Below, in pieces: positions 40,201 through 64,000 of a stretch of 64,000 bases of DNA. This DNA is from an uncultured Candidatus Saccharibacteria bacterium (GTDB lineage: Bacteria; Patescibacteriota; Minisyncoccia; Phycocordibacterales; UBA12088). The stretch's first letter is position 1; each line of letters begins with the position of its first letter. The position numbers and the translations under genes were made by a program. Location: contig CAZMLK010000002.1 of NCBI GenBank assembly GCA_964567265.1, positions 138,813 through 202,812 on the forward strand. The letters run 5' to 3'. The notes below the pieces were generated by a model. That model was not told the origin of the DNA, did no database searches, and worked only from the letters and a program-made list of their open reading frames with translations.

Positions 40201-40614
40201 ATGACAACAATCAACCAGCTCATCCGCAAGAATCGCAAGACCCCGGTCAGGAAATCCAAGACCGTGGTGCTTCGCCGTGGTTTCAACACTCTCGAGAACC
40301 GTCCAACCTTCTACCCATCGCCTTTCAAACGCGGTGTCTGTACGAAGGTCACGACCAAGACTCCTCGTAAGCCGAACTCAGCTATCCGTAAGATCGCCCG
40401 CGTCCGCCTCACGAACGGCATGGAAGTGACTGCATACATCCCGGGTATGGGCCACAACCTCCAGGAGCACTCTGTGGTGCTTCTCCGCGGCGGCCGCGTT
40501 AAGGACATTGGCGTCCGCTACACTGTGGTTCGTGGCAAGCTCGATGCAACCGGCGTTGCCAACCGTAAGACCTCACGCTCAAGCTATGGCGCAAAGCGTG
40601 CTAAGAAAGCATAA
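40201..40614 (+). CDS. rpsL: 30S ribosomal protein S12
   Basis: 137 aa; [31 protein letters not shown]. Confidence 0.97.
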
Positions 40615-40619
40615 TCACC

Positions 40620-41087
40620 ATGCGACGCCCACTCAAGAAAAAACTGACCGTAGCTCCGGATGTCATCTACCAGTCTGAAAAGGTAGCGAAATTCGTAAAC
40701 TCGATCATGCAGGACGGCAAGAAGGTTGCTGCCCGCAAGATCGTGTACGGCGCGCTCGACATCATCAAGGAAACGGATGGACTCGATCCTCTCGAAGTCT
40801 TCGAGACGGCGCTCCGCAATGTCGGTCCGTCTGTCGAAGTCCGCTCACGCCGCGTCGGCGGTGCCAACTACCAGGTGCCCCGCGAAGTCCGTCCTGAGCG
40901 CCGTTCAGCACTCGCGATGCGCTGGATCATCACCGCGGTCCGCGCAAAGAAGGGCGTGAAGACCGCAAAGTCCCTGGCCGAAGAACTCATCGCCGCATCG
41001 AAGAACGAAGGAACGGCCGTGAAGAAGAAGGAGGATACGCACAAGATGGCAGAATCGAACCGCGCGTTCGCTCACTTCGCCTGGTAA
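40620..41087 (+). CDS. rpsG: 30S ribosomal protein S7
   Basis: 155 aa; [22 protein letters not shown]-terminus. Confidence 0.97.
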
Positions 41088-41099
41088 TTTCACAAAATC

Positions 41100-41140
41100 A
41101 AAACAAAACCACGCCGGCTCCGCCGGCGGGGTTTTGTTTT
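41100..41140. terminator. Bidirectional intrinsic terminator
   Basis: AAAACAAAACCACGCCGGC-TC-GCCGGCGGGGTTTTGTTTT between rpsG and convergent orphan gene. Confidence 0.7.
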
Positions 41141-41154
41141 GAGACGCCAATCAA

Positions 41155-41994
41155 TTACTCTGCCTCCGCATGCACCTCGTGGATGCGCTCGACGTCATCA
41201 TGGAGCCGTGAGAGCCGCGGCCCGATCCGATCGACGAGCTCGCTTCCAAATACCACAAAGGGGACGAGATCCTTGCTCTGGAACAGTGTTCCGTTCTCGA
41301 TCACGTACATGCGCTTGTCGCGCATCTCGATCGAGTAGGCGCTCCCGCGATCGATGAGGAATTCCATGATCTCCGGCGTGAGGATTTCGAGTGCCTCGAT
41401 CTCCAGATCTTCAGCGACGTACAGGTTGAACCGCTTCGCGAATCCCGCATCCAGGGTCAGCGATTTGTGATAGGTGTCTGCAAGCGCCTCTCCCTCAAAA
41501 AACCGATTTTCCTCGAGGATGAGATCAGGCAGGGGACCACTGAAATCGAAGCAGCAGACGGTATAGAAATGGCTCTGGCTGTTCTTCCCGCTCCCGGTGG
41601 TGTACTGGAAATGGAACAGCTCGAAGGCAGTCGCCCCGTATTCACCGCTCACCACGTTCGCGATTGCACGGGAGTGACCCTTCTTAAAGAGCATGCTCGC
41701 GTAGGAATCGTCGAGGTCAGAGTACGACGCGTACTCAAAGCCGCACGCGTCGGCAAAACGGCGCATGGACTCTGCCTGGTACCGGCTCGCCCGGTAGCTC
41801 GCGTAGAGGAAGAGGGGAAGGAGGACTCCGTACAGGAACACGTTCAGCGGCTGGCCAAGCCCGAACAGCGAAAGGAAGAGTGCAATGACTCCGAGCACGA
41901 TCCCGATAAGCGCGATCTTCCGGAGTTCTCCGACCACCATGGCACGTGTCATATTCGCGGGGAATGATGCGCCGGGTTTGGGGCCGATTGGCAT
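41155..41994 (-). CDS. Hypothetical 2-TM membrane protein inserted between rpsG and fusA
   Basis: 279 aa; two N-terminal TM helices then soluble domain; TATACT -10 ends 10 nt before ATG. Confidence 0.5.
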   Translation of the reverse strand: MPIGPKPGASFPANMTRAMVVGELRKIALIGIVLGVIALFLSLFGLGQPLNVFLYGVLLPLFLYASYRASRYQAESMRRFADACGFEYASYSDLDDSYASMLFKKGHSRAIANVVSGEYGATAFELFHFQYTTGSGKNSQSHFYTVCCFDFSGPLPDLILEENRFFEGEALADTYHKSLTLDAGFAKRFNLYVAEDLEIEALEILTPEIMEFLIDRGSAYSIEMRDKRMYVIENGTLFQSKDLVPFVVFGSELVDRIGPRLSRLHDDVERIHEVHAEAE

Positions 41995-42073: not shown

Positions 42074-42544
42074 CTAGCAGGTGCCAGAACAGATGTACAT
42101 GGCCATAAGTCTGTGGGACGTGCGCAAGGCGCGCTCACCGATTGCTGTCCCAGGATAGCGCTCGGAAAGATCCTTATAATACTTTGCCAGCTTCCAGAGC
42201 GACCTTCGCGCTTCTCCAAGGTGAACATAGAGGTCGATCTCAGGGAGACCGGCGTCGCCATTTCTCCCGTGTGGATCCCTCCAGGTTGTCGTTCTCAGGT
42301 GGATCGGTTTCGGCATCCCCCCGCGCCAAAAATAGAAATCGATGCGACGGCGGAGCAGGCTTTGGAGTGGACTTACGATGACCACTGTTTCCGGGGGTGC
42401 CGCCACCTTCGCGAGGAGGTCTTTGCAGAGAGCGATTCCCAAGCCGTCCATTTTGTCTAAGGATGCGGACTGGGCCCTCCATGTAATCAAATCGAGCTTG
42501 GGGCGATGATATCCCCTGAGGGAGGTGGTTGAGTTCGATGACAC
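42074..42544 (-). CDS. Hypothetical protein inserted between rpsG and fusA
   Basis: 156 aa, Trp/Arg-rich, no motif; minus-strand terminator hairpin (GCGCCGGCCCGAA/TTCGGGCCGGCGC) directly after its stop supports orientation. Confidence 0.4.
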   Translation of the reverse strand: MSSNSTTSLRGYHRPKLDLITWRAQSASLDKMDGLGIALCKDLLAKVAAPPETVVIVSPLQSLLRRRIDFYFWRGGMPKPIHLRTTTWRDPHGRNGDAGLPEIDLYVHLGEARRSLWKLAKYYKDLSERYPGTAIGERALRTSHRLMAMYICSGTC

Positions 42545-42699: not shown

Positions 42700-44853
42700 A
42701 TGGAAGGAAGAGATTATCCGCTCGAGAGAGTACGAAACTTCGGGATCATCGCCCACATCGACGCCGGAAAGACCACCACGTCCGAGCGTATTCTGTATTA
42801 CACCGGCGAATCCCATAAGATCGGCGAGGTGCACGAGGGCGAGACGGTCACCGACTGGATGGAACAGGAGCGCGAGCGCGGCATCACCATCACTGCAGCG
42901 GCCATCACCTGCTTCTGGACCAAGACGGATGAGGATCCAGCAGACAAGGCCAAGAAGCAGCGCTTCAACATCATCGACACCCCGGGACACATCGACTTCA
43001 CCGTCGAGGTGAAGCGCTCACTCCGTGTGCTCGACGGCGCGGTCGTCGTCTTCGACGGCGTTGCCGGCGTCGAACCGCAGTCTGAGACCAACTGGCGCTA
43101 CGCAGACGAGGCAAAGGTGCCGCGTATCTGCTTCATCAACAAGCTCGACCGCACCGGCGCATCATTCGAGCGCTCGTACCAATCCATCCTCGACCGCCTC
43201 AACAAGAAGGCGGTCCGCATGCAGCTCCCGATTGGCGACGAGGATGCCTTCTCAGGCGTCATCGACCTCCTCAAGATGAAGGCATTCACCTTCACCGGCG
43301 AGCTCGGCAAGATCGTCGTCGAAGGCGAGATCCCTGCAAACATGATGGCCGAAGCGGAGAAGTACCGCGCAGAACTCATCGAGCGCATCGTCGAACACGA
43401 TGACGAGCTCATGAGCGGCTACCTCGAAGGGAAGATCCCGACGATGGAAGAACTCAAGAAGACGCTCCGGAAGGCAGTGATCGCGAACGATATCTTCCCG
43501 GTCTACACCGGCTCAGCGCTCAAGAACAAGGGCGTCCAGCTCGTCCTCGACGCGGTCGTCGACTATCTCCCGTCTCCCTTGGACATGCCGCCGGTCACAG
43601 GCATCAACCCGAACAACGGCGAGGCGATCGAGCGCCATGCGGATGATTCCGAGCCGTTCTCAGCGCTCGCCTTCAAGCTCCAGGCAGACCCGTTCGTGGG
43701 CCAGCTCACCTTCTTCCGTGTCTACTCAGGTACGATCGAAGCGGGTTCATATATCTACAATTCAACCACCGGCGACAAGGAGCGCCTCGGCCGCATCGTC
43801 CGCCTCCAGGCGAACGACCGCGAAGAAGTAAAGAAGGTCTACGCCGGCGAGATCGCCGCAGCCGTCGGGCTCAAGAACACCCGTACCTCGCACACGCTCT
43901 GCGACGAGAATGATCCGATCATCCTCGAAGAGATCGTCTTCCCGGAGCCAGTCGTGTCGCTTCGCATCGAACCGAAGACAAAGGCTGACCAGGAGAAAAT
44001 GGGCATCGCGCTCAAGAAGCTTTCCGATGAGGATCCAACCTTCCGCGTCACCTCTGATGCTGAGACCATGGAAACCATCATCGCGGGCATGGGCGAGCTC
44101 CATCTCGAGATCCTCGTCGACCGCATGAAGCGCGAATTCAACGTCGAAGCGAATGTCGGCAAGCCGCAGGTCGCGTACCGCGAGACCATCCAGCGCGAAG
44201 CCGAGGCAGAACACAAGTACATAAAGCAGACCGGCGGTCGCGGCCAGTACGGTCACGTGAAGATCCGCGTGAAGCCGATGGAAGCATGGCCGGAAGACAA
44301 GAAGATGCCAAACAACGTGAAGCGCGAAGATCACTTCGAGTGGATCAACAACATCAAGGGAGGCGTCATTCCGCAGGAATACATCCCGGCTGTCGAGAAG
44401 GGCGTGAAGGAAGCAATGGAGCGCGGTATCGTCGCCGGCTACAAGCTCGAGGATGTCTCATGCGAACTCTACGATGGCTCGTACCACGATGTGGACTCAT
44501 CCGAAATTGCCTTCAAGATCGCAGGATCCCAGGCGTTCCAGGAGGCAGCCAAGAAGGCGGGCGCCGTCATCCTCGAACCGATCATGCGCGTCGAAGTCGT
44601 CATCCCGGAGAAATTCATGGGCGACATCAACGGCAACCTTTCCTCGAAGCGCGGTCAGATCGAAGGCATGGAAGATCGCGGCATGCTCCGCGTCGTGAAG
44701 GCCAAGGTCCCGCTCTCCGAAATGTTCGGATACACGACGGCGCTTCGCTCCATGACGGAGGGTCGCGGTTCCATGACCATGGAATTCGACCACTACGAAG
44801 TGGTTCCGAAGAACGTCTCCGACACCATCGTCGCGGCACGCGGAGGGAAGTAA
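42700..44853 (+). CDS. fusA: Elongation factor G
   Basis: 717 aa; [21 protein letters not shown], full domain set. Confidence 0.97.
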
Positions 44854-44869
44854 CTCTGAATCAAACAAC

Positions 44870-44909
44870 ACAAAGCCGGCGCGAGCTTTGCTCGCGCCGG
44901 CTTTGTTTT
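44870..44909 (+). terminator. Intrinsic terminator of fusA
   Basis: AAAGCCGGCGCGAGC-TTTG-CTCGCGCCGGCTTT plus TTTT. Confidence 0.75.
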
Positions 44910-44920
44910 CACCCTCCATA

Positions 44921-44964
44921 CAAAAAACACCCCGGAAATTGGCTGAAAGCCAATTTCCGGGGTG
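44921..44964 (-). terminator. Intrinsic terminator of the minus-strand orphan gene
   Basis: CACCCCGGAAATTGGC-loop-GCCAATTTCCGGGGTG followed on minus strand by TTTTTTG. Confidence 0.7.
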
Positions 44965-44971: not shown

Positions 44972-45406
44972 TCAAGCAATAATCCGCTTCCGCACCCTCT
45001 CAAAGTAGAGAAGAGAGGCGAGGAAAGTGGCGATGGTGGGGAGCATTGTTGCACCGATTATAAATCCAATCGGATCCTGTATTGCTTCTGTCCGAGTAGC
45101 CACGTTTACCCAGCTCAGGTGAAGCATTATGGATCCCACCGCAGCCACCAGCAAACTTAAGGCGATCTGCAGGAGAAAGGAGTCGCCCTCAACGACATAG
45201 TCAGCGATGACCAATGACGCGAAGACCAAGATCGTCACAATGAGGACTGTCGAGATAGCCCCTCCGCCGAGCTGCCACCCGGGCCGGTCCAAGACCACGG
45301 CCATGGTTTCTGGGGCACTGTTTCTGAGAAAGAGCACCAGCATCGTCAAGCAGGTGAGTATGCTGGCGATTAACGAGCGCACAAAAGCACCTCTCATTTT
45401 CGGCAT
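44972..45406 (-). CDS. Hypothetical 4-TM membrane protein inserted between fusA and tuf
   Basis: 144 aa, four hydrophobic helices, no motif. Confidence 0.5.
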   Translation of the reverse strand: MPKMRGAFVRSLIASILTCLTMLVLFLRNSAPETMAVVLDRPGWQLGGGAISTVLIVTILVFASLVIADYVVEGDSFLLQIALSLLVAAVGSIMLHLSWVNVATRTEAIQDPIGFIIGATMLPTIATFLASLLYFERVRKRIIA

Positions 45407-45506: not shown

Positions 45507-45535
45507 TTGACGTACCCCTTGCTTTCCGCTATTAT
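45507..45535 (+). promoter_or_regulatory. Candidate tuf promoter
   Basis: TTGACG, 17-nt spacer, TATTAT; implies about 170-nt leader. Confidence 0.5.
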
Positions 45536-45709: not shown

Positions 45710-46909
45710 ATGGCAGGTACATTCGATCGCTCGAAGCCCCATGTCAACGTCGGCACCATCGGCCACGTCGACCACGGCAAGACGACCCTCACAGCCGGCA
45801 TCCTCCACGTGCTCCACATGGCGGGGAATGGCTTTGGCGCATCCGAGAAGGGTGTTGACCAGATTGACAACGCGCCTGAAGAAAAGGCACGTGGTATTAC
45901 GATTTCGCTCTCGCACTCTGAGTACGAGACCCCGAACCGTCACTACGCGCACATCGACGCGCCAGGTCACGCTGACTACATCAAGAACATGATCACGGGC
46001 GCAGCCCAGATGGACGGTGCGATCCTCGTGGTCGCAGCGACCGACGGCATGATGCCCCAGACGCGCGAACACGTCCTCCTTGCAAAGCAGGTTGGCGTGC
46101 CTCGCATGATCGTCTTCATCAACAAGGTGGACATGGTCGAAGACCAGGACCTCGTTGACCTCGTCGAAGAGGAAATCCGCGACCTTCTCACGAAGCAGGG
46201 TTTTGATGGCGCAAACGCACCGATCATTCGCGGTTCAGGCCTCAAGGCCCTCGAATCGAAGTCGGTTGACGATCCGTACGCTCAGAAGATCATCGAACTC
46301 GCAAAGGCACTCGATGAATACATCCCGATGCCGGTTCGCGAGACTGAGAAGCCGTTCCTCATGCCGATCGAAGACATCTTCTCGATCGAAGGACGCGGTA
46401 CCGTCGTTACCGGACGCATCGAGCGCGGCCAGGTGAAGGTGGGCGAGGATGTTGAAATCATTGGCCTCCAGCCAACCGCGAAGACGACCATCACGGGTAT
46501 CGAAATGTTCAACAAGCAGCTTGATAGCGGTATGGCAGGCGACAACGCCGGCATCCTCCTCCGCGGAACCAAGAAGGAAGACGTGCACCGCGGACAGGTC
46601 CTCGCAAAGACGGGATCAGTTACGCCGCACACTGAATTCGAGGCAGAAGCATACATCCTCAAGAAGGAGGAAGGAGGCCGCCACACGCCGTTCTTCACCG
46701 GTTACAAGCCGCAGTTCTATGTCCGCACCACGGACGTGACGGGCGACGTGACCCTCCCAGAAGGTGTTGAAATGGTCATGCCAGGCGACACCACGAAGTT
46801 CAAGGTGAAGCTCGTCGCACCAATCGCGCTCGAAGAGCAGACCCGTTTCGCCATCCGCGAGGGCGGCAAGACGGTCGGTGCAGGCGTCGTCACCAAGGTG
46901 ATCGCCTAA
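45710..46909 (+). CDS. tuf: Elongation factor Tu
   Basis: 399 aa; [25 protein letters not shown]. Confidence 0.98.
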
Positions 46910-46958
46910 CCCACAAAGTACTTACCAAAACCACTACTAGGACCTTTGACAACACGAT

Positions 46959-47339
46959 ATGGCAACGAAAGAAACTACAGAAGCTCCGAAGCGCGCCAAG
47001 CGCGCGGCGAAAGCTGTCAAAGGAGTTGAAGCCGTCTCCAAGCTCCGCATTCGCGTGCGCGCCTATGAGCACAAGCTCCTCGACGCATCCGTAAAGCAGA
47101 TCATGGACACCGCGCTTCGCTTCGATGCCACCATCGTCGGTCCGATCCCGCTTCCGACGGAAATCAAGAAGTACACGGTGAACCGCGCCGCATTCGTCTA
47201 CAAAGACGCGCGAGAACAATTTGAAATGCGAGTGCACAAGCGCCTCATCGACATCCTGAATCCGTCCGCGAAAGTCATCGAGTCCCTGACCAACCTCACC
47301 CTCCCATCCGGCGTCAACATCGACGTCAAGATGGTTTAG
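46959..47339 (+). CDS. rpsJ: 30S ribosomal protein S10 with Lys/Ala-rich N-terminal extension
   Basis: 126 aa; core KLRIRVRAYEHKLLD...GPIPLPT; about 25 extra N-terminal residues. Confidence 0.95.
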   Translation: MATKETTEAPKRAKRAAKAVKGVEAVSKLRIRVRAYEHKLLDASVKQIMDTALRFDATIVGPIPLPTEIKKYTVNRAAFVYKDAREQFEMRVHKRLIDILNPSAKVIESLTNLTLPSGVNIDVKMV

Positions 47340-47384
47340 GTAAAAGGAGTCAAACAAAAAATCCCCTCACGGGGATTTTTTGTT
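47319..47384 (+). repeat. rpsJ 3' end plus terminator, repeat copy 1 (native)
   Basis: ATCGACGTCAAGATGGTTTAGGTAAAAGGAGTCAAACAAAAAATCCCC-TCAC-GGGGATTTTTTGTT. Confidence 0.85.
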
Positions 47385-47426
47385 ACACTATGGAGGATTT
47401 CTTTTACATACTAACCGTTCAATCTC

Positions 47427-48191: not shown

Positions 48192-48272
48192 ATCGACGTC
48201 AAGATGGTCTAGGCGAAGGAGTCAAACAAAGAATCCCCCCAAGATAATTTCTCTAGGGGATTTTTTGTTTTT
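48192..48272 (+). repeat. rpsJ 3' end plus terminator, repeat copy 2
   Basis: ATCGACGTCAAGATGGTCTAGGCGAAGGAGTCAAACAAAGAATCCCC...GGGGATTTTTTGTTTTTT; by eye 4 substitutions and one 1-nt indel over 48 nt versus copy 1. Confidence 0.85.
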
Positions 48273-55280: not shown

Positions 55281-55285
55281 GGCAT

Positions 55286-55720: not shown

Positions 55721-55741
55721 TTTTCCTATACACCAGACACC

Positions 55742-56515: not shown

Positions 56516-56522
56516 AAACACC

Positions 56523-56948: not shown

Positions 56949-56952
56949 TAGT

Positions 56953-57138
56953 ATGGCCGACACTCAGAACAAAACAGTCGAAGAGCTCCAGAAGCTCCTG
57001 GCAGAGAAGCGCGAAGGCCTTCGAAGCTTCCGCTTCGGGATTACCGGCTCAGGAACGAGGAACGTCAAGGACGGACGGAACTCGAAGCGGGACATCGCAC
57101 GCATCCTGACCGAGCTCCGGAAGCGCGAGCAGGCATAA
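56953..57138 (+). CDS. rpmC: 50S ribosomal protein L29
   Basis: Start at [28 protein letters not shown]. Confidence 0.9.
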
Positions 57139-57158
57139 GACGGAAGAAACCAAACACC

Positions 57159-57419
57159 ATGGCAACCAAAACCACAACAGAACAGGTAGAAAAGGCGGGC
57201 AAGCGCTTCAGTGGCGTTGTCGTGTCGACCAAGATGAAGGACACGGTTGTGGTGTCTGTGGAGCGCTACGTGAAGCACCCGAAGTACCAGAAGTACATCA
57301 AGCGCGCGAAGAAGCTCCATGCGCATGATCCAGGGAACACCAAGGCGCTTGGCGACAAGGTGACCATCAAGGAGACTCGCCCGATTTCGAAGACGAAGAA
57401 TTTCATCGTCGTAAACTAA
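57159..57419 (+). CDS. rpsQ: 30S ribosomal protein S17
   Basis: 86 aa; [29 protein letters not shown]. Confidence 0.95.
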
Positions 57420-57420
57420 T

Positions 57421-57792
57421 ATGATCCAGCCACAATCACTCGTGAAGATCGCAGATAACTCCGGCGCCAAGATCGGACGCGTCTTCAAGATTCTTGGCGG
57501 CTCGAAGAAGCGCTACGCGGAGATCGGCGAGATCGTGGTCTTTTCAGTACAGACGGCAGAGCCGCGCAAGATGGTCAAGAAGAAGGACATCCTTTATGGC
57601 CTCGTCGTCCGCCAGACCAAGCCGCTTCGCCGAAAGGATGGCTCGTACATTCGCTTCGACGAGAATGCGGTCGTCGTGATGGAAAAGGGAAAGCCAGAGC
57701 CACGCGCAGGACGCATTTTCGGCCCGATCCCACGCGAGATCGCAGAACTCGGCTACCAGACCATCGTGTCTCGGGCCCCGGAAATCGTGTAG
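57421..57792 (+). CDS. rplN: 50S ribosomal protein L14
   Basis: 123 aa; MIQPQSLVKIADNSGAK. Confidence 0.97.
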   Translation: MIQPQSLVKIADNSGAKIGRVFKILGGSKKRYAEIGEIVVFSVQTAEPRKMVKKKDILYGLVVRQTKPLRRKDGSYIRFDENAVVVMEKGKPEPRAGRIFGPIPREIAELGYQTIVSRAPEIV

Positions 57793-57808
57793 TCGATTCT
57801 ATAAATAT

Positions 57809-58117
57809 ATGAAGATCAAGAAAGGCGACAAAGTAATCGTTTCAACCGGCAAGGACAAGGGCAAGACAGGCTCTGTGCTCAAGGTCTTTCCTCGTGAGGA
57901 TCTCGTCCTCGTTGAAGGGGTGAATATTCGCAAGCGCCATCAGAAGGGCACCCGCACCGGACAGAAGGGCCAGATCGTCGAGAAGGCGATGCCGATCCAC
58001 ATTTCAAACGTGATGGTGAAGGACGACAAGACCGGCAAGGGAACCCGCGTCCAGTACAAGATGGAAGGAGACAAGAAAATCCGCGTCGCTCAGAAGAGCG
58101 CTGCTAAGATCGGCTAA
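57809..58117 (+). CDS. rplX: 50S ribosomal protein L24
   Basis: 102 aa; KIKKGDKVIVSTGKDKGKTG KOW motif. Confidence 0.95.
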   Translation: MKIKKGDKVIVSTGKDKGKTGSVLKVFPREDLVLVEGVNIRKRHQKGTRTGQKGQIVEKAMPIHISNVMVKDDKTGKGTRVQYKMEGDKKIRVAQKSAAKIG

Positions 58118-58126
58118 TCTACCACT

Positions 58127-58660
58127 ATGGAAATGGTTCAGGAAAAACAGAATAGCGCCTTCGCAACCCTCAAGGGAGATTTCGGATACACGAACAAGAT
58201 GCAGTCACCGAAGCTCGTGAAGGTGGTCATCTCGGTCGGAACCGGCTCAAACAAGGATAAGGAGAAGATCAAGGTCATCGAGAACCGCCTGCCGAAGATT
58301 ACAGGCCAGAAGGCTGCACAGCGGACGGCGAAGAAGGCTATCGCCTCATTCAAGACACGCACCGGCATGGTGATCGGCTACCAGGTGACGCTCCGCGGCC
58401 AGCGCATGATGGACTTCCTCAACAAGCTCATCCACGTCGCCCTCCCGCGTACGCGCGACTTCCGCGGCCTCTCCGCAAAGTCTATCGATGACATGGGCAA
58501 CTACACCCTCGGCATCAAGGAGAACACCATTTTCCCAGAGACATCGGACGAAGACTTGAAGGATGTGTTTGGTCTCGCGATCACGATTGTGACGACTGCG
58601 AAGTCGAAGCCGGAAGCAGAAGCCTTCCTCCGCCACATCGGCATGCCGCTTCAGAAATAG
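58127..58660 (+). CDS. rplE: 50S ribosomal protein L5
   Basis: 177 aa; YTNKMQSPKLVKVVISVG, ALPRTRDFRG. Confidence 0.96.
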   Translation: MEMVQEKQNSAFATLKGDFGYTNKMQSPKLVKVVISVGTGSNKDKEKIKVIENRLPKITGQKAAQRTAKKAIASFKTRTGMVIGYQVTLRGQRMMDFLNKLIHVALPRTRDFRGLSAKSIDDMGNYTLGIKENTIFPETSDEDLKDVFGLAITIVTTAKSKPEAEAFLRHIGMPLQK

Positions 58661-58679
58661 ACCCAGAAATTTTAAAGAA

Positions 58680-58720
58680 ACAAAAGGCCCCCGGCGCTTC
58701 GCGCCGGGGGCCTTTTGTTT
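58680..58720 (+). terminator. Intrinsic terminator after rplE
   Basis: ACAAAAGGCCCCCGGCGC-TTC-GCGCCGGGGGCCTTTTGT plus TT, fused to a TTGACA box. Confidence 0.75.
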
Positions 58721-58747
58721 GACAAGCCGCCAAATCATCAGTACCAT
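58719..58747 (+). promoter_or_regulatory. Candidate promoter of small basic ORF
   Basis: TTGACA, 17-nt spacer, TACCAT. Confidence 0.4.
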
Positions 58748-58803
58748 CGATTTTTGGAACGATAGCCGGGCAATTCCGCCCCTATCCATCCGGAGAGTTT
58801 CAG

Positions 58804-58986
58804 ATGCCGACCAAGGGTTCGCCGATGAAGCGGTTCCGTCCGAATCGGGGCCAGCAAACACCAGGACAGCGTGCTTCAGCGCTCCGAAAACTGCGGCAAC
58901 GAGGGCACAAAGTAGCAACCCGGACCATCGAGGACGCGAGACGCGCGGCATATGGCGCTCGAAAGGCAAATTTGACTGCCGACTGA
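58804..58986 (+). CDS. Candidate 60-aa highly basic protein inserted between rplE and rpsN
   Basis: MPTKGSPMKRFRPNRGQQTPGQRASALRKLRQRGHK...; GGAGAG 8 nt upstream of ATG; own promoter and terminator; overlapping alternative frames exist. Confidence 0.35.
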   Translation: MPTKGSPMKRFRPNRGQQTPGQRASALRKLRQRGHKVATRTIEDARRAAYGARKANLTAD

Positions 58987-59012
58987 TCATTCACGCTAGG
59001 AGCTGGTAACGT

Positions 59013-59049
59013 ACACCGGCCGAGGTTCCCTCGGCCGGTGTTTGCTTTT
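59013..59049 (+). terminator. Intrinsic terminator
   Basis: ACACCGGCCGAGG-TTC-CCTCGGCCGGTGT plus TTGCTTTT. Confidence 0.7.
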
Positions 59050-59075
59050 GACAATGGCTGAGAAGGTCGTACTAT
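59048..59075 (+). promoter_or_regulatory. Candidate promoter of 59109 ORF
   Basis: TTGACA, 16-nt spacer, TACTAT. Confidence 0.45.
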
Positions 59076-59108
59076 CGTCAGTAGTGTGCTCTGTGCGGAG
59101 GGGATGAG

Positions 59109-59516
59109 ATGACACAGGTAAGCATGTTCGGGTTGCCGACGCTCGCAGTCGAGATCGTGGGTGACCATGTCCACAGCCTTACGCACTACTTGTTCGAGAC
59201 GAGTCGGATGGTCGGGGAGGATGGGGCCGTTTCCCATTACGCAGCAGTCGTGTACGCCAGGCTTCCGTTCGGATTAGATGCGGTGTATCGGAATGAGGGA
59301 GCTGCCAGCGTTCCAACCAGCAGGCTGATCGAATCCGGCTCCCGTGACCCCATTTTGGCGGCGGTACCAGGGCTTTTCAAGTATCAGGCCGATACGAAAG
59401 CATCCTGGGACGCATTTCTCCGGGAAAAGCTCCTGCCGTATGTGCCTGCCGGCAGAATTCTAGTCCTTTGGATCAGTGAAGACGGCGCCACTGAGACCTC
59501 GTTTGTCGTATCGTAG
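59109..59516 (+). CDS. Hypothetical protein inserted between rplE and rpsN
   Basis: 135 aa, soluble, no motif; GGAGGGG upstream of ATG; own promoter and terminator. Confidence 0.45.
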   Translation: MTQVSMFGLPTLAVEIVGDHVHSLTHYLFETSRMVGEDGAVSHYAAVVYARLPFGLDAVYRNEGAASVPTSRLIESGSRDPILAAVPGLFKYQADTKASWDAFLREKLLPYVPAGRILVLWISEDGATETSFVVS

Positions 59517-59533
59517 CCGCCCCTTGAGACTAC

Positions 59534-59570
59534 GCCGCCGGCCAGGTTTCCTGGCCGGCGGCTCTCTTTT
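59534..59570 (+). terminator. Intrinsic terminator
   Basis: GCCGCCGGCCAGG-TTTC-CTGGCCGGCGGC plus TCTCTTTT. Confidence 0.7.
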
Positions 59571-59580: not shown

Positions 59581-59609
59581 TTGACAATGTATATTCAGGC
59601 TGTTAGTAT
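59581..59609 (+). promoter_or_regulatory. Candidate promoter restarting the spc-operon remainder at rpsN
   Basis: TTGACA, 17-nt spacer, TAGTAT. Confidence 0.5.
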
Positions 59610-59666: not shown

Positions 59667-59852
59667 ATGGCAAAGACATCAGTAAAGGTCCGGGCAGCCC
59701 GGACACCGAAGTTCGCAAGCCGCGTCGTACGACGCTGTTTCCGTTGTGGCCGCAAGCATGCGTTCATGCGCGATTTCGGACTTTGCCGCATCTGCTTCCG
59801 CGAACAGGCTAACGAAGGAAATATCCCAGGAATCAAGAAATCATCATGGTAA
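59667..59852 (+). CDS. rpsN: 30S ribosomal protein S14, short zinc-ribbon type (S14Z)
   Basis: 61 aa; [20 protein letters not shown]. Confidence 0.95.
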
Positions 59853-60241
59853 CCGACCCGGTAGCAGACCTGATCACGCAGATCAACAATGCGAGCCGCG
59901 CCAAGAAGGCGCTGGTGTCGGTTCCGTACTCTGCCCTCAAGTTCGCGATCGCGCTCAAGCTCGTCGAGACAGGGTACGTGAAGACTGCCGTGAAGCACGG
60001 CAAGAAGGCGCGCAAGAATCTCGACATCGAGCTCAGCTACGATGCTGCAGGTGTTCCTCGCATCGAAAAGATGATTCGCGTCTCGAAGCCAGGAAAGCGC
60101 GCATACAAGAAGGTCGCTGACATGCAGCCGGTCAAGGGTGGTATGGGGTCTCTTTTCCTCACCACGCCGAAAGGAATCCTCACGAATGACGAAGCCCGCA
60201 AGGAAAAAGTCGGCGGCGAAGCCCTCTTCACTGTTTGGTAA
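59846..60241 (+). CDS. rpsH: 30S ribosomal protein S8
   Basis: 131 aa; [13 protein letters not shown]; start overlaps rpsN stop (ATGGTAA). Confidence 0.96.
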
Positions 60242-60247
60242 AAACAT

Positions 60248-60793
60248 ATGAGCCGCGTAGGAAAACAACACATCCAAATCCCAGCACAGACAACCGTGAC
60301 CCTCGCGGACGGCGTGCTTTCGGTGAAGGGTCCACTGGGCGCGCTCTCGAAGCCGGTCAAGGATACGATCGTCATCACCATTGCTGAGAAGGAAGTCACC
60401 TTCATGCCGAAGGGCGGAGAAGAAGCAAAGAAGGCAGACCGCTCCCTCTGGGGCACCTACGCCTCGCACCTCGACAACATGATCGAGGGTGTCACGAAGG
60501 GATTCTCGAAGAAGCTCATCCTCGAAGGCATCGGCTACCGCGCCGAAGTGCAGGGCAGCACCATGGTGTTCGCGCTCGGCCTCTCGCATCCGGTCCGCCT
60601 CCCGATCCCGGAAGGCATCAAGGTCCTCGTCGAGAAGACGGCGATCACGATCTCAGGAATCAACAAGGAGCAGGTCGGCCAGTTCGCCGCGACCGTCCGC
60701 GACCTGAAGCCGCCAGAGCCGTACAAGGGCAAGGGCATGCGCTATGACGGAGAAATCATCCGCCGCAAGCAGGGCAAGAAGTCCACCGCATAG
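60248..60793 (+). CDS. rplF: 50S ribosomal protein L6
   Basis: 181 aa; MSRVGKQHIQIP, PEPYKGKGMRY. Confidence 0.96.
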   Translation: MSRVGKQHIQIPAQTTVTLADGVLSVKGPLGALSKPVKDTIVITIAEKEVTFMPKGGEEAKKADRSLWGTYASHLDNMIEGVTKGFSKKLILEGIGYRAEVQGSTMVFALGLSHPVRLPIPEGIKVLVEKTAITISGINKEQVGQFAATVRDLKPPEPYKGKGMRYDGEIIRRKQGKKSTA

Positions 60794-60827
60794 GCAACAC
60801 CTCCAACGCGTTTCAAACCAACCGACC

Positions 60828-61181
60828 ATGAACCACAAAGCAACGACAAAGAAAGAGAAGCGAGACATGCGCCACAACCGCATCCGGGCGCGTGTGTCTG
60901 GTACGGCTGACAAGCCGCGCCTCGCGCTCTACAAGTCGAACAAGGCGGTATACGTCCAGCTTATCGACGACACGGTCGGCAAGACCATCGCGGCGGCTTC
61001 AAGCATGAACGAGAAGAAGGGTACGATGACCGAGAAGGGAACCGCAGTCGGCGTCGCGATCGCGAAGGCTGCTGCTGAAAAGAAAATCACCACCGCAGTA
61101 TTCGATCGCGGCGGCTTCCTCTATACGGGAGTCGTAAAGGCGGTCGCTGACGGCGCGCGCGCCGGCGGACTCAACTTTTAA
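60828..61181 (+). CDS. rplR: 50S ribosomal protein L18
   Basis: Start at MNHKATTKKEKRDMRHNRIRARVSG; FDRGGFLYTGVVKAVADGAR. Confidence 0.93.
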   Translation: MNHKATTKKEKRDMRHNRIRARVSGTADKPRLALYKSNKAVYVQLIDDTVGKTIAAASSMNEKKGTMTEKGTAVGVAIAKAAAEKKITTAVFDRGGFLYTGVVKAVADGARAGGLNF

Positions 61182-61184
61182 TAT

Positions 61185-61817
61185 ATGGCAGAGGAACCCA
61201 TGACAACAGAAGACACACTCGTGACCCCGACAGAAACGGATGCGGTTCCGGCCGTGGACGGTGTTGCCGATGAAGTTGCCGCTCCTGAGGCTGCTCCCGC
61301 AGAAGCTGTACGCGCACCACGCGCTGCATTTTCGAAGAACCGCCGCGAGCCGAGCCGCTCACGCCGCACTCCGCGCGAGCGCGTCCGTCCTGAATTCGAT
61401 CAGAAGATGATCTCGATCCGTCGCGTTGCCCGAGTGGTCGCCGGAGGCCGCCGCTTCAGCTTCTCCGTCGCGCTCGTCGCGGGAGATCGCCGCGGACGCG
61501 TCGGTGTCGGACTCGGGAAGGCGGGCGATACGTCGCTCGCGATCGAGAAGGCGCTTCGCGCCGCAAAGAAGGCGATGATCACTGTTTCTCTCACTGAAAA
61601 CAAGTCTATTCCGCATGATGTCGACGCCAAGTATGCGAGCGCGCGCATCATGATGCGCCCGGCTCCAGGTCGCGGTCTCGTCGCCGGCAGTGCCGCTCGT
61701 ACGGTCCTTGAACTCGCAGGCATCACCGATGTCTCCGCAAAGATCCTCTCCGGCAGCAAGAACCGCCTCTCGAATGCGATGGTTGCGATCGAAGCGCTTA
61801 AGAAATTCAGCGCGTAA
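61185..61817 (+). CDS. rpsE: 30S ribosomal protein S5 with acidic/Ala-rich N-terminal extension
   Basis: 210 aa; VARVVAGGRRFSFSVALVAGD, GVGLGKAGD; about 60 extra N-terminal residues. Confidence 0.95.
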   Translation: MAEEPMTTEDTLVTPTETDAVPAVDGVADEVAAPEAAPAEAVRAPRAAFSKNRREPSRSRRTPRERVRPEFDQKMISIRRVARVVAGGRRFSFSVALVAGDRRGRVGVGLGKAGDTSLAIEKALRAAKKAMITVSLTENKSIPHDVDAKYASARIMMRPAPGRGLVAGSAARTVLELAGITDVSAKILSGSKNRLSNAMVAIEALKKFSA

Positions 61818-61826
61818 CCTACTATC

Positions 61827-62276
61827 ATGCAAAGCAACACACTCAAGCGTCATACACCGAACGAGGGATCGCGCCGCGTTGGACGTGGCGGCAAGCGCGG
61901 AAAGACCTCGGGTCGCGGCGGCAAGGGCCAGACCGCGCGCGCAGGCTCACGCCTCCGCCCGGAAATGCGAGATACGATCAAGCGCCTTCCGAAGCTCCGC
62001 GGTCACGGCAAGAACCGTTCGCACACCGTGAAGAGCGAGATGGCGCGCATCGTCCCGGTGAATCTCCGCGTGCTTGAGACCCATGTCTCAGTCGGCGACA
62101 CCGTGAACCCGGCATACCTCGTCCAGAAGGGTATCGTGAATGCAGCCCGCGGCCGCGCGCCGAAGGTGAAGATCCTCGGTGTCGGCGAGCTCACGAAGAA
62201 GATCACGATCTCCGGATGCGCAGTCTCCGAGTCCGCGAAGGCGGCAGTCGAGAAGGCAGGCGGTACGGTACTCTAG
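61827..62276 (+). CDS. rplO: 50S ribosomal protein L15
   Basis: 149 aa; GRGGKRGKTSGRGGKGQTAR; only 9 nt after rpsE, so no L30 gene. Confidence 0.95.
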   Translation: MQSNTLKRHTPNEGSRRVGRGGKRGKTSGRGGKGQTARAGSRLRPEMRDTIKRLPKLRGHGKNRSHTVKSEMARIVPVNLRVLETHVSVGDTVNPAYLVQKGIVNAARGRAPKVKILGVGELTKKITISGCAVSESAKAAVEKAGGTVL

Positions 62277-62298
62277 ACCAACACTCCCCAGAAACCCC

Positions 62299-63570
62299 AT
62301 GTCGGTTTTCATACAGAAACTCAAACTCATTTTCTCAGACCGGGTGCTCCGCTCCCGGGTTCTGTTCGTGGTCGCGATGCTCGGCCTTTTCCGCCTCTTG
62401 GCAGCCATCCCAGTTCCAGGCATTGATGCGGCGCAGCTGAAGGCCCTCCTCGAAGGCAACCAGTTCCTCGGCCTCCTCAATATTTTCTCGGGAGGCGGCC
62501 TTTCGACCCTCTCGATCATGATGCTCGGCGTCTCGCCGTACATCACCGCGTCGATCATCATGCAGCTCTCGACCATCATGGTCCCGCAGCTCAAATCGAT
62601 GTACCAGGAAGAAGGGGAAGCGGGCCGCGCGCGCTTTGCGCAGTACACACGCCTCCTCTCGGTCCCGATGGCGCTCCTCCAGGGCTTCGGCTATGCGGTC
62701 CTGCTTTCACGCCAGGGCGTCCTCGTCGGGCTTGATACCTTCGGCTTCGCGACGGTCATCATCGTCATGACTGCCGCTTCCGTCCTCCTCATGTGGATCG
62801 GCGAGCTGATCACTGAATTCGGCATCGGCAACGGCGTTTCCCTCATCATCTTCGCCGGTATCGTCGCGCACCTCCCGACCGTGGCTGGCCAGGCGCTCTT
62901 CAGCTTCGATGTCTCCCAGATACCGCTCTACATCGGCTTCCTCGTCGCCGCACTCCTTGTCGTGACTGCAGTCGTTGTCATTACCGAAGCAGAACGCCCG
63001 ATCCCGATCACCTACGCGAAGAGCGTCCGCGGCGCAAAGAGCTTCGGCGGCTCCTCGACGTACCTGCCGCTCCGCGTGAACCAGGCCGGCGTGATCCCGA
63101 TTATCTTCGCGCTCTCGATCCTCCTCTTCCCGCAGATGATCCTCAACCTCGCGATTCGATTCATGACCGGCCCCGCTGCGGGGTACGCCACGGAGGCGCT
63201 CCAGTTCCTCTCGAATCAGTACGTCTACGGCATCCTCTACTTCATCCTCGTCTTCTTCTTCACGTACTTCTACACCGCCGTCACCTTTGATCCGGATTCC
63301 ATCGCCAAGAACCTCCAGCAGACGGGCGCGTTTGTGCCGGGTGTCCGCCCAGGTGCTCCGACGTCCGAATACATTGCCAACATCCTGACCCGCATCACGC
63401 TCGTCGGCGCGGTCTTCCTCGGACTCATCGCGATCCTCCCGCTCGTCATGCAGGCCATCACCGGCCTCCAGTCGCTCGCTATCGGCGGCACGGCGCTCTT
63501 GATCGCGGTCTCCGTGATCCTCGACCTCGTTCGAAAGATTGACGCGCAAATCTCAATGCGCGAGTATTAG
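62299..63570 (+). CDS. secY: Preprotein translocase subunit SecY
   Basis: Start at MSVFIQKLKLIF; 10 TM pattern; GVSPYITASII, GELITEFGIGNG. Confidence 0.95.
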   Translation: MSVFIQKLKLIFSDRVLRSRVLFVVAMLGLFRLLAAIPVPGIDAAQLKALLEGNQFLGLLNIFSGGGLSTLSIMMLGVSPYITASIIMQLSTIMVPQLKSMYQEEGEAGRARFAQYTRLLSVPMALLQGFGYAVLLSRQGVLVGLDTFGFATVIIVMTAASVLLMWIGELITEFGIGNGVSLIIFAGIVAHLPTVAGQALFSFDVSQIPLYIGFLVAALLVVTAVVVITEAERPIPITYAKSVRGAKSFGGSSTYLPLRVNQAGVIPIIFALSILLFPQMILNLAIRFMTGPAAGYATEALQFLSNQYVYGILYFILVFFFTYFYTAVTFDPDSIAKNLQQTGAFVPGVRPGAPTSEYIANILTRITLVGAVFLGLIAILPLVMQAITGLQSLAIGGTALLIAVSVILDLVRKIDAQISMREY

Positions 63571-63574
63571 AAGA

Positions 63575-64000
63575 ATGGATACCAACACTATCGTTTTCAT
63601 GGGGCGGCCCGGTTCTGGCAAGGGCACGCAGGCAAAGCGCATTGCTGCGCATTTCGGCTACGACTACTTCGGCACGGGCGCGCTCTTCCGCGAACTCAAG
63701 GCGGAAGACTCCATGCTCGGGCGTAAAGTCGCCTCGACCATCGATGAGGGACACCTCATGCCCCATTGGTTCGCGTCCCATCTCGTCGTCGACAAGCTTG
63801 TCACGACGCCGCTTGAGACCGGCATCGTCTTCGATGGTTCCAACCGAACGCTCGCGGAAGCGGAACTCTTCTTCGAGGTCGCGACCTGGCTCGGGCGTCC
63901 GTACCGCGTCATCTGCCTCGCGGTAAGCGAGGAGACGATCGCGAAGCGGATCCAGATCCGTGGAGAGCAAAGCGGCCGCCCAGAGGACGCGCTCGCGATC
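63575..64000 (+). CDS. adk: Adenylate kinase (3' end outside window)
   Basis: MDTNTIVFMGRPGSGKGTQAKRIA P-loop; open to window end. Confidence 0.9.
   Translation, partial: MDTNTIVFMGRPGSGKGTQAKRIAAHFGYDYFGTGALFRELKAEDSMLGRKVASTIDEGHLMPHWFASHLVVDKLVTTPLETGIVFDGSNRTLAEAELFFEVATWLGRPYRVICLAVSEETIAKRIQIRGEQSGRPEDALAI

Follow-up and report, generated by a model that had tools for sequence, protein, structure and literature searches.

Boundaries of a modular ribosomal-protein gene cluster as probable hotspots of accessory gene turnover in a Paceibacteria lineage

The str-S10-spc cluster analysed here is interrupted by accessory DNA at a small set of junctions; these breakpoints are shared across a clade of related loci, whereas the cargo they hold is almost wholly different between genomes. 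We propose that the cluster is organized as six autonomous transcription modules and that recombination hotspots free of mobile elements lie at their boundaries, a reading to which we assign a probability of roughly 0.65.

Within the window—the whole 64,000-nt stretch of DNA under study, part of a CPR genome of Paceibacteria type—the gene order of the cluster is intact save for rpmD (L30), which is absent. All modules lie on the plus strand: rpsL and rpsG (module 1, 40201-41087; Pfam S12 and S7); fusA, encoding EF-G (module 2, 42700-44853); tuf and rpsJ (module 3, 45710-47339); rplC, rplD, rplW and rplB (module 4, 51250-53841, by Pfam on an identical contig); rpsS, rplV, rpsC, rplP, rpmC, rpsQ, rplN, rplX and rplE (module 5, 54930-58660); and rpsN (a 61-aa zinc type), rpsH, rplF, rplR, rpsE, rplO, secY (to 63570) and adk, the last cut by the window end (module 6, 59667-64000). 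Inserts ranging from 0.86 to 3.9 kb and totalling 8.5 kb occupy rpsG|fusA (gap 1, 1612 bp), fusA|tuf (gap 2, 856 bp), rpsJ|rplC (gap 3, 3910 bp), rplB|rpsS (gap 4, about 1088 bp) and rplE|rpsN (gap 5, 1006 bp), while the remaining 19 junctions measure -7 to 49 bp. In E. coli, all five of these junctions lie within single operons. The same order was read from Pfam-annotated gene calls on independent, 100%-identical contigs, so that the gene order and five breaks given in a preliminary description of this DNA hold. That description had also raised mis-assembly, a reading for which we found nothing in favour: junctions 1, 3, 4 and 5 recur at 98-100% identity in independent assemblies from several other runs, which contradicts a chimera and, as far as the tools used allow, confirms the breaks as real.

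All five gap-facing modules were predicted to close with a bidirectional terminator-like hairpin, a palindrome that reads AAACAAAAGG...CCTTTTGTTT, bearing out the earlier claim of terminators at every break. These motifs lie 3' of rpsG (41098-41142), fusA (44867-44909, the first of two hairpins at 44867-44964, the second of which, at 44928-44964, is the putative minus-strand terminator of the gap-2 ORF O3), rpsJ (47348-47389), rplB (53859-53896) and rplE (58678-58720, overlapping a TTGACA box). Promoters were likewise predicted from motifs only. All five exact matches to TTGACA-N16-18-TAnnAT in the 64-kb window sit in gaps (0.15 expected), as do all three occurrences of TTTGTTTGACA. The suggestion that every break carries a fresh promoter of this type stands for rpsS (TTGACA-17-TACTAT, 54862-54890, plus strand, fused to a T-tract as CCTTTTGTTTGACA) and rpsN (TTGACA-17-TAGTAT, 59581-59609, plus strand), the only downstream modules with an exact site. 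It does not stand for tuf (TTGACG-17-TATTAT, 45507-45535, plus strand), for rplC (TTGCAT-17-TATAGT, 51076-51104, which together with a leader of roughly 140 nt spans 51076-51249 on the plus strand) or for fusA, where the match is weak; a consensus -35 box is missing for both fusA and rplC. The rplC promoter-like site and leader are nonetheless kept in four haplotypes with differing upstream cargo, and comparable sites were found in 56% (tuf), 83% (rpsS) and 53% (rpsN) of relatives.

We compared 156 non-redundant related loci from one clade (L4 50-63% identical), scoring a junction as open where its gap exceeded 300 bp. Such gaps were present in 195 of 422 cases at six hot junctions versus 3 of 1,339 at all others. 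The hot set comprises the five breaks of the window—rpsG|fusA (open in 20/30), fusA|tuf (50/54), rpsJ|rplC (29/110), rplB|rpsS (56/85) and rplE|rpsN (29/51)—plus tuf|rpsJ (11/92); rplC|rplD was open in 3 of 148 loci and the other 17 junctions in none. Several relatives have four to six of the six hot junctions open, and in some (L005, L006, L008, L014) whole modules have been relocated. The S10 gene also accompanies the str genes in cyanobacteria, plastids and archaea; the clade resembles them in keeping tuf and rpsJ together with a break before rplC, but it has six variable junctions rather than a single fixed one. A set of 314 gap ORFs fell into 264 clusters, 238 of them singletons, and the Pfam content of gap ORFs was heterogeneous (judged from the top 25 of 60 families); the gap ORFs of the window had no homolog in 80 syntenic loci. 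The breaks, which the preliminary description took for five independent and highly unusual events, are thus breakpoints common to the clade: their positions are ancient, and the inserted genes are not conserved. Shared breakpoints would fit an ancient fixed architecture, but one with conserved inserted genes is at odds with this turnover and has, together with an assembly artefact, a negligible probability.

Where hot junctions are unbroken, median spacers are 70-216 nt at four of them, compared with at most 20 nt elsewhere. Along with the heterogeneous cargo, these long spacers would also suit purely permissive sites, whereby DNA arrives genome-wide by illegitimate joining, selection purges it from translationally coupled junctions and the flanking genes are irrelevant. 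Tolerance alone, though, leaves several features described below unexplained—remnants of diverged functional alleles, the coincidence of changed cargo with raised divergence of the adjacent core module, and cargo being exchanged while the linkers around it stay fixed—and we consider this account unlikely.

The preliminary description found no recognizable motif in the 12 inserted ORFs except for one NUDIX hydrolase. Their status as orphans stands for most of them, the further exceptions being O1 and O6. In gap 1, O1 (41155-41994, minus strand) encodes a DUF3137-family membrane protein of 279 aa whose fold is TtfA-like: its AF2 model (pLDDT 91.7) matches TtfA (6T84; Foldseek E 7e-7), its homologs span 2,340 representative clusters at E<=1e-3, and 30 of 80 homologs match PF11335. 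O1 has native-like codon usage (GC3 0.75) and differs between strains by 38 synonymous versus 8 non-synonymous changes. Its neighbour O2 (42074-42451, minus strand, with a predicted minus-strand terminator at 42068-42041) spans 125 aa, or 156 aa from an upstream GTG; it was called as 125 aa on an identical contig and is the best of six frames, with atypical codon usage. O3 in gap 2 (44972-45406, minus strand), a predicted multi-pass membrane protein of 144 aa, is likewise the best frame (GC3 0.66). Neither O2 nor O3 yielded a family match.

Five accessory genes had been described in gap 3; by way of correction, one of them, A3, lies on the minus strand. A1 (47427-48131, plus strand), a 234-aa ORFan that found only itself in a search of 5.8e9 proteins and gave a poor single-sequence AF2 model, is located between rpsJ and a 'ghost' of the rpsJ 3' end (48192-48273, plus strand). 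This ghost comprises the last 18 nt of rpsJ, the stop codon and the terminator; over 48 nt it is 90% identical to 47319-47366 (E 2e-6), its coding part retaining IDVKMV* with one synonymous change. There follows the A2 cassette (48323-48975, plus strand), in which a secreted-looking ORF (48402-48866) is preceded by a perfect TTGACA-18-TATAAT promoter-like site (48323-48352) and followed first by a predicted terminator (48912-48939) and then, at 48953-48975, by a repeated terminator right arm; a strain 98% identical lacks the block 48237-48964. A3 (49156-49767), a 203-aa membrane-anchored ORF, is absent in strains L174 and L175. The NUDIX hydrolase A4 (49877-50377, plus strand; Pfam E 6e-19), with native-like codon usage (GC3 0.81), is found in three of four haplotypes, and A5 (50434-51069, plus strand), a 211-aa ORFan among 5.8e9 proteins with a GC3 of 0.34, is swapped in sister strains for either a 338-aa HATPase_c/DUF4325 gene or a 356-aa gene.

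Gap 4 holds two minus-strand slots. The first (O4, 93-102 aa, 53981-54289) has three alleles among near-identical strains: the two alternatives, of 113 and 134 aa, share 26% identity, and O4 has no detectable similarity to either. For the second (O5, 124 aa, 54391-54765, with a putative minus-strand terminator at 54381-54357), sister strains carry homologs at 90% and 32% identity, compared with 93-96% for the flanking DNA. In gap 5, O6 (58719-59009) is probably not a gene: it scores as non-coding, a -35 box contains its start, and on an identical contig it was passed over by the gene caller. The plus-strand unit containing it (58719-59041), with a promoter-like site at one end (58719-58747) and a terminator-like one at the other (59013-59041), showed no convincing ORF and no excess RNA structure; it may contain a basic ORF of 60 aa (58804-58986). 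The O7 cassette (59048-59562, plus strand), kept in three strains, carries a 135-aa ORF (59109-59516), a promoter-like TTGACA-16-TACTAT and a predicted terminator (59534-59562). Judged by GC3 (0.56-0.66 for nine inserted ORFs and 0.34 for A5, against 0.75 +/- 0.05 for native genes) and by the ORFan status of A1 and A5, the cargo looks foreign.

The preliminary description suggested that the locus serves as a landing pad or as an expression platform for accessory genes. The former is supported: most relatives are open at these junctions too and there carry unrelated cargo, which differs even among strains with identical S10 or L2 proteins. The latter, in which cargo would be selected for being driven by strong ribosomal promoters, is not. 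Gaps do contain the window's strongest promoter-like sites, and in relatives ~69% of the larger gap ORFs share the orientation of the ribosomal genes, so that some read-through expression is possible. However, 6 of the 11 plausible inserted genes of the window are antisense to the ribosomal genes, bidirectional terminator-like hairpins part the cargo from the modules, and plus-strand cargo (A2, O7) has promoter-like and terminator-like sites of its own, making this explanation highly improbable.

Closer strains reveal how quickly cargo changes. At rpsJ|rplC, contigs with identical S10 (95-98% nucleotide identity) fall into four cargo haplotypes, one consisting of a lone, unrelated 130-aa gene in 593 bp. 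Ghosts of flanking gene ends were detected in about 6 of about 190 gaps, derived from the 3' ends of rpsJ (window, L003), rplB (L124) and rpsG (L027), and from the 5' ends of the downstream genes fusA (L123) and tuf (L095). Their coding parts are 21-45 nt long, and the adjoining terminator is included in the window and L124. A hand count over the window, L003, L124, L027 and L123 gave 21 synonymous and 2 non-synonymous differences between ghost and resident codons; since they differ almost only synonymously, the ghosts derive from diverged functional alleles. Divergence is also mosaic, in pairwise comparisons of short metagenomic contigs that could mix populations: a 400-bp tract in O1 is 12% diverged within flanks at 0.4%, and relative to strain SRR28480386 the core genes of the block running from the NUDIX gene and rplC through rplB and O5 to rpsS are 3-5% diverged and the cargo is different, versus 0-2% for most genes flanking that block.

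In the window, L003 and L124, cargo lies between direct repeats of an upstream gene's 3' end plus terminator, and the A2 cassette is bordered by a repeated terminator arm. Such repeats, and the short, similar size of the ghosts, would also fit an att-like mechanism, with the inserts being decayed site-specific islands at ribosomal gene 3' ends whose integrases have since been lost. As in islands at tRNA or tmRNA 3' ends, the repeats hold a conserved gene 3' end, leaving the gene intact after insertion; unlike those, the targets are protein-coding, ghosts also occur at 5' ends, and the inserts span 0.6-4 kb rather than tens of kb. The gaps likewise recall integron cassette arrays in lining up single-gene units with an imperfect palindrome after each one, in border repeats and in the presence or absence of units among strains, but the units point in either direction, every unit comes with a predicted promoter, and the palindromes resemble ordinary terminators with no attC core seen. 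A Pfam scan of the window gaps and of ten strain-variable or ghost-bounded cargo ORFs returned no integrase (IntI-type or other), recombinase or transposase, although rare integrases may exist in gaps of relatives, whose ORFs were judged by the top 25 of 60 Pfam families. Islands would moreover require six different genes as targets and sit poorly with cargo units comprising one small gene each, complete with a promoter-like site, and whole-module divergence blocks better match homologous exchange; we regard this origin as distinctly unlikely.

Under the favoured reading of recombination hotspots at module boundaries, the cluster in this lineage would be not one super-operon but the modules rpsL-G, fusA, tuf-rpsJ, rplC-B, rpsS-rplE and rpsN-secY, each ending in a bidirectional intrinsic terminator and most restarting from their own promoter. 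The inter-module spacers would be the sole sites in this essential tract to tolerate extra DNA, with bordering sequence that ranks among the most conserved of the pangenome, a combination expected to make them hotspots of gene flux without mobile elements. Accessory genes would be gained, replaced and lost by homologous or homology-facilitated recombination with DNA of related strains and species. The ribosomal genes on either side would provide the anchor, and in some cases an illegitimate or single-crossover join would finish the exchange. DNA uptake may supply the donors: a ComEC-type channel is encoded 4 kb upstream, and natural competence has been demonstrated in CPR Saccharibacteria (PMC10187176).

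The general model, in which hotspots lack mobile elements and recombination takes place at the core genes beside them, is already known (PMC5635113). Like the hotspots of Oliveira et al. 2017 (PMC5635113), a given core-gene interval holds different accessory genes per genome, with rapid turnover, no integrase found, signs of homologous recombination in flanking core genes and a link to DNA uptake. Here, by contrast, five to six are nested inside a ribosomal-protein gene cluster, use of the same junctions extends to species with L4 50-63% identical rather than stopping at one species, and cargo units are mostly single small genes. Invasion of a spacer between ribosomal transcription units by a few unrelated genes, after which the units may separate, is rare in Gammaproteobacteria and Bacilli and mostly occurs between classical operons (PMC6735719), whereas it is frequent in this clade. 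The cargo would then represent a shifting, strain-specific set of mostly small membrane, secreted or unknown proteins with their own signals, and no functional part of the ribosomal operon.

The str-S10-spc cluster runs from rpsL to secY-adk in canonical order, with all genes present except rpmD (L30), which is absent at rpsE|rplO (61817-61827), as is typical of CPR bacteria. It falls into six modules: rpsL-rpsG (40201-41087), fusA (42700-44853) and tuf-rpsJ (45710-47339), each assigned by translation and Pfam; rplC-D-W-B (51250-53841) and rpsS-rplV-rpsC-rplP-rpmC-rpsQ-rplN-rplX-rplE (54930-58660), assigned by Pfam and gene calls on 100%-identical contigs; and rpsN-rpsH-rplF-rplR-rpsE-rplO-secY-adk (59667 to the window end), assigned by Pfam and gene calls. 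In place of the short spacers that would permit long polycistronic transcripts in the conserved cluster, the modules are separated by five gaps of 0.86-3.9 kb, each with terminator-like hairpins: 1612 bp at rpsG|fusA, 856 bp at fusA|tuf, 3910 bp at rpsJ|rplC, about 1088 bp at rplB|rpsS and 1006 bp at rplE|rpsN (gaps 1 to 5). The remaining 19 junctions measure -7 to 49 bp, and inserted DNA amounts to ~8.5 kb within the 23.4-kb locus. The C-termini of L4 (52400-52642), S19 (55200-55280), L22 (55600-55720) and S3 (56400-56515) and the N-termini of S10 (46959-47050) and S5 (61185-61330) carry Lys/Ala/Pro-rich tails, and a tandem pair of adenylate-kinase-like genes lies 3' of secY (63575-64000; in a related locus, L083:8404-9608).

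By L4, the closest matches (52-63% identity) belong without exception to Patescibacteria of Parcubacteria/Paceibacteria type, under the labels Taylor-, Kaiser-, Zambryski- or Nomurabacteria; the host is therefore a CPR bacterium. A metagenome scan returned no relative above 63% L4 identity, and close strains were obtained via exact-protein look-ups instead. The host has a GC content of ~57%; positions 14001-16000, at 0.46-0.49 against ~0.57 elsewhere, may represent another foreign island.

Junctions 1, 3, 4 and 5 are not products of mis-assembly. Logan assemblies of SRR16481186/7 reproduced all four at 100% identity, and the rpsG-O1-O2, rpsJ-A1-ghost and rplE-O7-rpsN arrangements recur in a second population (SRR14932526, 98-99.9% identical), where O and A numbers denote inserted ORFs and a ghost is a short copy of a flanking gene end inside a gap. 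For O3, O5 and Tuf, exact-protein look-ups returned no entry; the independent assemblies and strain comparisons therefore cover every junction but 2. The interrupted cluster of the preliminary description is thus real, with corrections to its gene map.

All junctions were sized in 156 non-redundant related loci, located by mapping the window's 25 proteins onto them. Gaps of >300 bp were concentrated at six hot junctions (195/422 observations versus 3/1,339 elsewhere): rpsG|fusA (20/30 loci), fusA|tuf (50/54), tuf|rpsJ (11/92), rpsJ|rplC (29/110), rplB|rpsS (56/85) and rplE|rpsN (29/51). The three exceptions all lay at rplC|rplD (3/148), and the other 17 junctions were never open. Five of the six hot junctions fall within single operons of E. 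coli. In the 17 loci with all six visible, 0 to 6 were open, mostly three or four, so the window, with five, sits at the high end of the range and is of the same kind as its relatives. What had been described as five independent, unusual insertions are instead clade-wide module boundaries with fast-changing cargo (the inserted accessory ORFs). Even when closed, hot junctions had median spacers of 106 nt (rplB|rpsS), 136 nt (rplE|rpsN), 216 nt (fusA|tuf) and 70 nt (rpsG|fusA), compared with ~20 nt or less elsewhere in the cluster. Whole modules are also relocated: rplB is followed by rpsN in L005, L008 and L014, and L006 reads rpsG, then rpsS...rplE, then fusA. In a few relatives, rplJ-rplL (L10, L12) lies inside a gap (L027:12564-13052, L051:13904-14263 and similar)—for the most part probably rplB|rpsS, and in one case fusA|tuf, judged by cluster sizes and lengths—and would, if so, be a further ribosomal module moving among hot junctions. 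Gene families recurring at different junctions were also considered as mobile cassettes and set aside; the most clear-cut of these families are probably rplJ-rplL, going by lengths and L10/L12 Pfam matches.

The cargo itself is highly diverse. Clustering of 314 ORFs from 139 gaps yielded 264 clusters, 238 of them singletons, and the first 80 syntenic loci contained no homolog of any of the window's 12 ORFs. A Pfam census covering part of the relatives' gap ORFs (150) gave a mixed picture, with peptidoglycan-binding and PKD domains, glycosyltransferases, a mechanosensitive channel, prephenate dehydratase, pyruvate kinase and DUF559, as well as L10/L12 in a few genomes.

Turnover is visible even between close strains, which we compared on contigs of other runs encoding an identical S10, L2 or S8 protein. 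Contigs 95-99% identical in their ribosomal genes carried four cargo haplotypes at rpsJ|rplC: the window's A1-A2-A3-NUDIX-A5; A1-A3-NUDIX followed by a HATPase_c/DUF4325 gene and missing the A2 block (48237-48964); A1-A2-NUDIX followed by a 356-aa gene, with A3 missing and A5 replaced; and, within 593 bp, just one unrelated gene of 130 aa. In all of them, homology resumes within ~40 nt of the rplC promoter-like site. The replacement for A5 in the sister strain (L172:3796-4812) combines HATPase_c with a STAS-like DUF4325 domain and had no PADLOC match. At rplB|rpsS, the O4 slot has three alleles: products of 113 and 134 aa are 26% identical, and the window's O4 has no detectable similarity to either. 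The O5 slot has homologs at 90% and 32% identity, and the linkers (54281-54395 and 54790-54912) remain 93-95% identical despite the changed cargo. Gap 5 was stable in the three strains compared.

Among the window's inserted ORFs, O1 (279 aa) had been taken for an orphan, yet it has 2,340 representative relatives, and DUF3137 is matched by 30 of 80 homologs. The family is marked by PF11335 and by N-terminal TM helices plus a beta-rich domain. On its own O1 stays below Pfam thresholds for PF11335; its AlphaFold model (AF2, pLDDT 91.7) predicts a soluble domain resembling mycobacterial TtfA (6T84). O1 uses native codons, strains differ in it by 38 synonymous and 8 non-synonymous changes, and the closest homolog whose context is visible (41% identity) has an unrelated neighborhood. 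O2, O3, A1, A2, A3, O4, O5 and O7 are each the top-scoring of six frames at their own location, with a GC3 of 0.56-0.66 (native genes, 0.75 +/- 0.05); A5 has a GC3 of 0.34. Neither A1 nor A5 has a relative outside its own species among 5.8 billion proteins, and a single-sequence AlphaFold model of A1 was too poor to use (pLDDT 44). A4 (49877-50377) is a NUDIX hydrolase by Pfam; its match to the PADLOC candidate defense family PDC-S07 (E 4e-12) is probably generic NUDIX similarity.

O6, by contrast with its earlier listing as an ORF, scores as non-coding, has its start codon in a -35 box and was left uncalled by the gene caller on an identical contig. The unit it occupied (58719-59041) has a promoter-like site and a strong terminator at its ends but no convincing ORF, and does not differ among three strains; positions 58804-58986 may hold a very basic ORF of 60 aa. 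A structured RNA in this region was dropped, the folded RNA having no excess stability (z = +0.9).

Mobility genes are absent from these gaps as far as profile searches extend. The window ORFs gave no mobility match in Pfam, NCBIfam, PHROGs or PADLOC, nor did ten variable cargo ORFs from relatives in Pfam. NCBIfam, PHROGs and PADLOC returned no match at all for ten inserted ORFs, PADLOC on nine relatives' cargo ORFs plus the window NUDIX found the generic NUDIX match only, and, that match aside, no mobility, phage or defense family was hit by the window's inserted ORFs.

How the cargo arrived is suggested by ghosts. In the window, A1 sits between rpsJ and a 48-nt copy of the rpsJ end plus the left terminator arm (47319-47366 versus 48192-48238; 90% identity, E 2e-6), with IDVKMV-stop kept and one synonymous change. 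Relatives contain further copies. L003 has one of the rpsJ 3' end (3 synonymous differences), L124 one of the rplB 3' end with terminator (3 synonymous, 1 stop-to-stop and 1 non-synonymous change) and L027 one of the rpsG 3' end (4 synonymous changes and 1 non-synonymous); L123 repeats codons 1-15 of fusA (10 synonymous changes, no non-synonymous), L095 has a tuf 5' end in degraded form, and L174 a NUDIX 3' end. Counted from the sequences, the five best ghosts together hold 21 synonymous versus 2 non-synonymous differences, implying that the copies diverged as parts of working genes, in different genomes; decay of in-place duplications would not produce this excess. Ghost-bounded cargo is unremarkable: L124 has HIT plus nucleotidyltransferase, L027 an aspartyl protease-like ORF, and neither includes an integrase. 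A decayed site-specific element is a possible alternative source, given how short the ghosts are and that they take in the terminator. Islands of the tRNA type carry an integrase, which was not found in the window ORFs or the cargo inspected; their attL/attR direct repeats with the target gene's 3' end do have counterparts, in a few gaps: the window's rpsJ pair and those of L003 and L124.

The same duplication of gene end plus terminator, together with the terminator arm repeated at the A2 cassette borders, could also be read as the work of a system dedicated to cassette capture, of an integron-like or hairpin-targeting kind, in which a putative enzyme would use the module-closing AAACAAAA-hairpin-TTTTGTTT elements as recombination sites. 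If true, the Paceibacteria ribosomal locus would be a programmed store of exchangeable single-gene cassettes. We consider this very improbable. An integron in the strict sense was considered as well and rejected: it needs an adjacent IntI tyrosine recombinase, whereas the window's gap ORFs showed no recombinase domain; and integron cassettes are promoterless, share one orientation and carry attC, whereas the cargo here has mixed orientation, its own promoter-like sites and terminator-like palindromes without clear attC cores.

Divergence between strains forms a mosaic. Relative to SRR14932526, flanks differ by 0.2-0.5%, a 400-bp tract in O1 by 12% and rpsL by 2.2%, with every rpsL change synonymous. 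Relative to SRR28480386, the stretch NUDIX-[A5 slot]-rplC...rplB-[O4 slot]-O5-rpsS has core genes 3-5% diverged and carries other cargo; divergence is 0-2% in tuf-rpsJ and rplV...rplE, and spans 0-3.3% in module 6, itself a mosaic. Within modules, rpsL (40434-40587), rpsS (54930-55280) and rpsH (59846-60241) are 2-3% diverged between strains at synonymous sites only, next to neighbors at 0-0.6%, and look like short recombination tracts. Mosaic tracts in these pairwise comparisons, with the ghost alleles, would be in keeping with elevated homologous recombination in the flanking core genes.

We propose that the cluster in this clade would constitute six transcription units and tolerate extra DNA only at module boundaries, because genes within modules are packed at 0-20 nt and probably translationally coupled. 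The highly conserved flanks may then serve as homology arms for DNA arriving from related strains and species: a double crossover would swap cargo cleanly, and a single-crossover or homology-facilitated illegitimate event would leave ghost gene ends behind. A ComEC-type channel is encoded at 35420-36925, and natural competence has been described in CPR Saccharibacteria (PMC10187176); we infer homologous recombination after DNA uptake as the source of the footprints. The proposal follows the model of hotspots without mobile elements put forward by Oliveira et al. 2017 (PMC5635113), at an unexpected location: the same core-gene interval holds differing accessory genes across genomes, turnover in close strains is rapid, and mobility genes are absent from the window ORFs and ten cargo ORFs. 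The preliminary reading as a 'landing pad' is accordingly supported; that as an 'expression platform' is not. In Gammaproteobacteria and Bacilli, a few genes occasionally invade the cluster, mostly at inter-operon spacers, and separation may ensue (PMC8046335, PMC6735719), whereas invasion here is frequent, recurs at fixed junctions and is coupled to fast cargo turnover. The literature we searched in full text, with incomplete coverage, yielded no description of interrupted ribosomal clusters in CPR bacteria.

The transcription signals of these units are motif predictions. Module ends carry a long palindrome, AAACAAAAGG-hairpin-CCTTTTGTTT, that reads as a putative intrinsic terminator on both strands (41098-41142, 44867-44909, 47348-47389, 53859-53896 and 58678-58720). 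Exact TTGACA-N16-18-TAnnAT sites occur five times in the whole 64-kb window (0.15 expected), all inside gaps, upstream of A2, rpsS, the O6 unit, O7 and rpsN. Promoter-like sites precede tuf (TTGACG-17-TATTAT) and rplC (TTGCAT-17-TATAGT, 51076-51104), the latter kept with its 140-nt leader in four strains with unrelated upstream cargo; fusA has a weak match only. In the 200 nt preceding each module or gene, relatives have a near-consensus site at rpsS in 83%, tuf in 56%, rpsN in 53%, rpsJ in 21%, rplC in 6% and fusA in 4% (background, 0.04 per 200 nt).

Rfam searches at the gathering threshold, over the whole window and seven related loci, found no ribosomal leader, the sole match being a tRNA-Gly far upstream. 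Upstream of rplC, at a distance of 20-170 nt, 15 relatives share a predicted structured RNA motif, GGCAAUGUUG-variable hairpin-CAUUACUGUCCG within an outer helix, that occurs at no other place within the loci (L009:9180-9300, L026:9255-9372, L045:9198-9316 and 12 others, all outside the window). Compensatory changes affect 9 of its 20 predicted pairs, rpsJ and rplC are separated in 10 of 12 motif-bearing loci with a visible junction, and no Rfam family matches it, making it a candidate new autoregulatory leader of the L3-L4-L23-L2 module. The window's own rplC leader (51108-51249) is of another type, with hairpins CTCTCGTTCTGAGAG and GTCCCAATAGGGAC followed by CAAGGGATTCGTCCTTG and a T-run; kept in the four strains and partly common to L039 and L052, it could be an attenuator.

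The ribosomal-protein cluster is a textbook case of change-resistant gene order and a marker block for placing uncultured bacteria in the tree of life. Across a large CPR clade, cuts at fixed points divide it into modules, whose borders are among the most dynamic sites in these contigs; contigs of the 'syntenic ribosomal block' tend to break or differ precisely at the hot junctions, which calls for caution. Selection for co-transcription of ribosomal genes appears relaxed or reorganized in these slow-growing organisms with tiny genomes. Conserved-gene-anchored recombination may be one of the main routes by which CPR bacteria, poor in mobile elements, gain genes, and the gaps offer a readily available supply of genes peculiar to individual strains—chiefly envelope or secreted proteins and ORFans—that may matter for a host-attached lifestyle.
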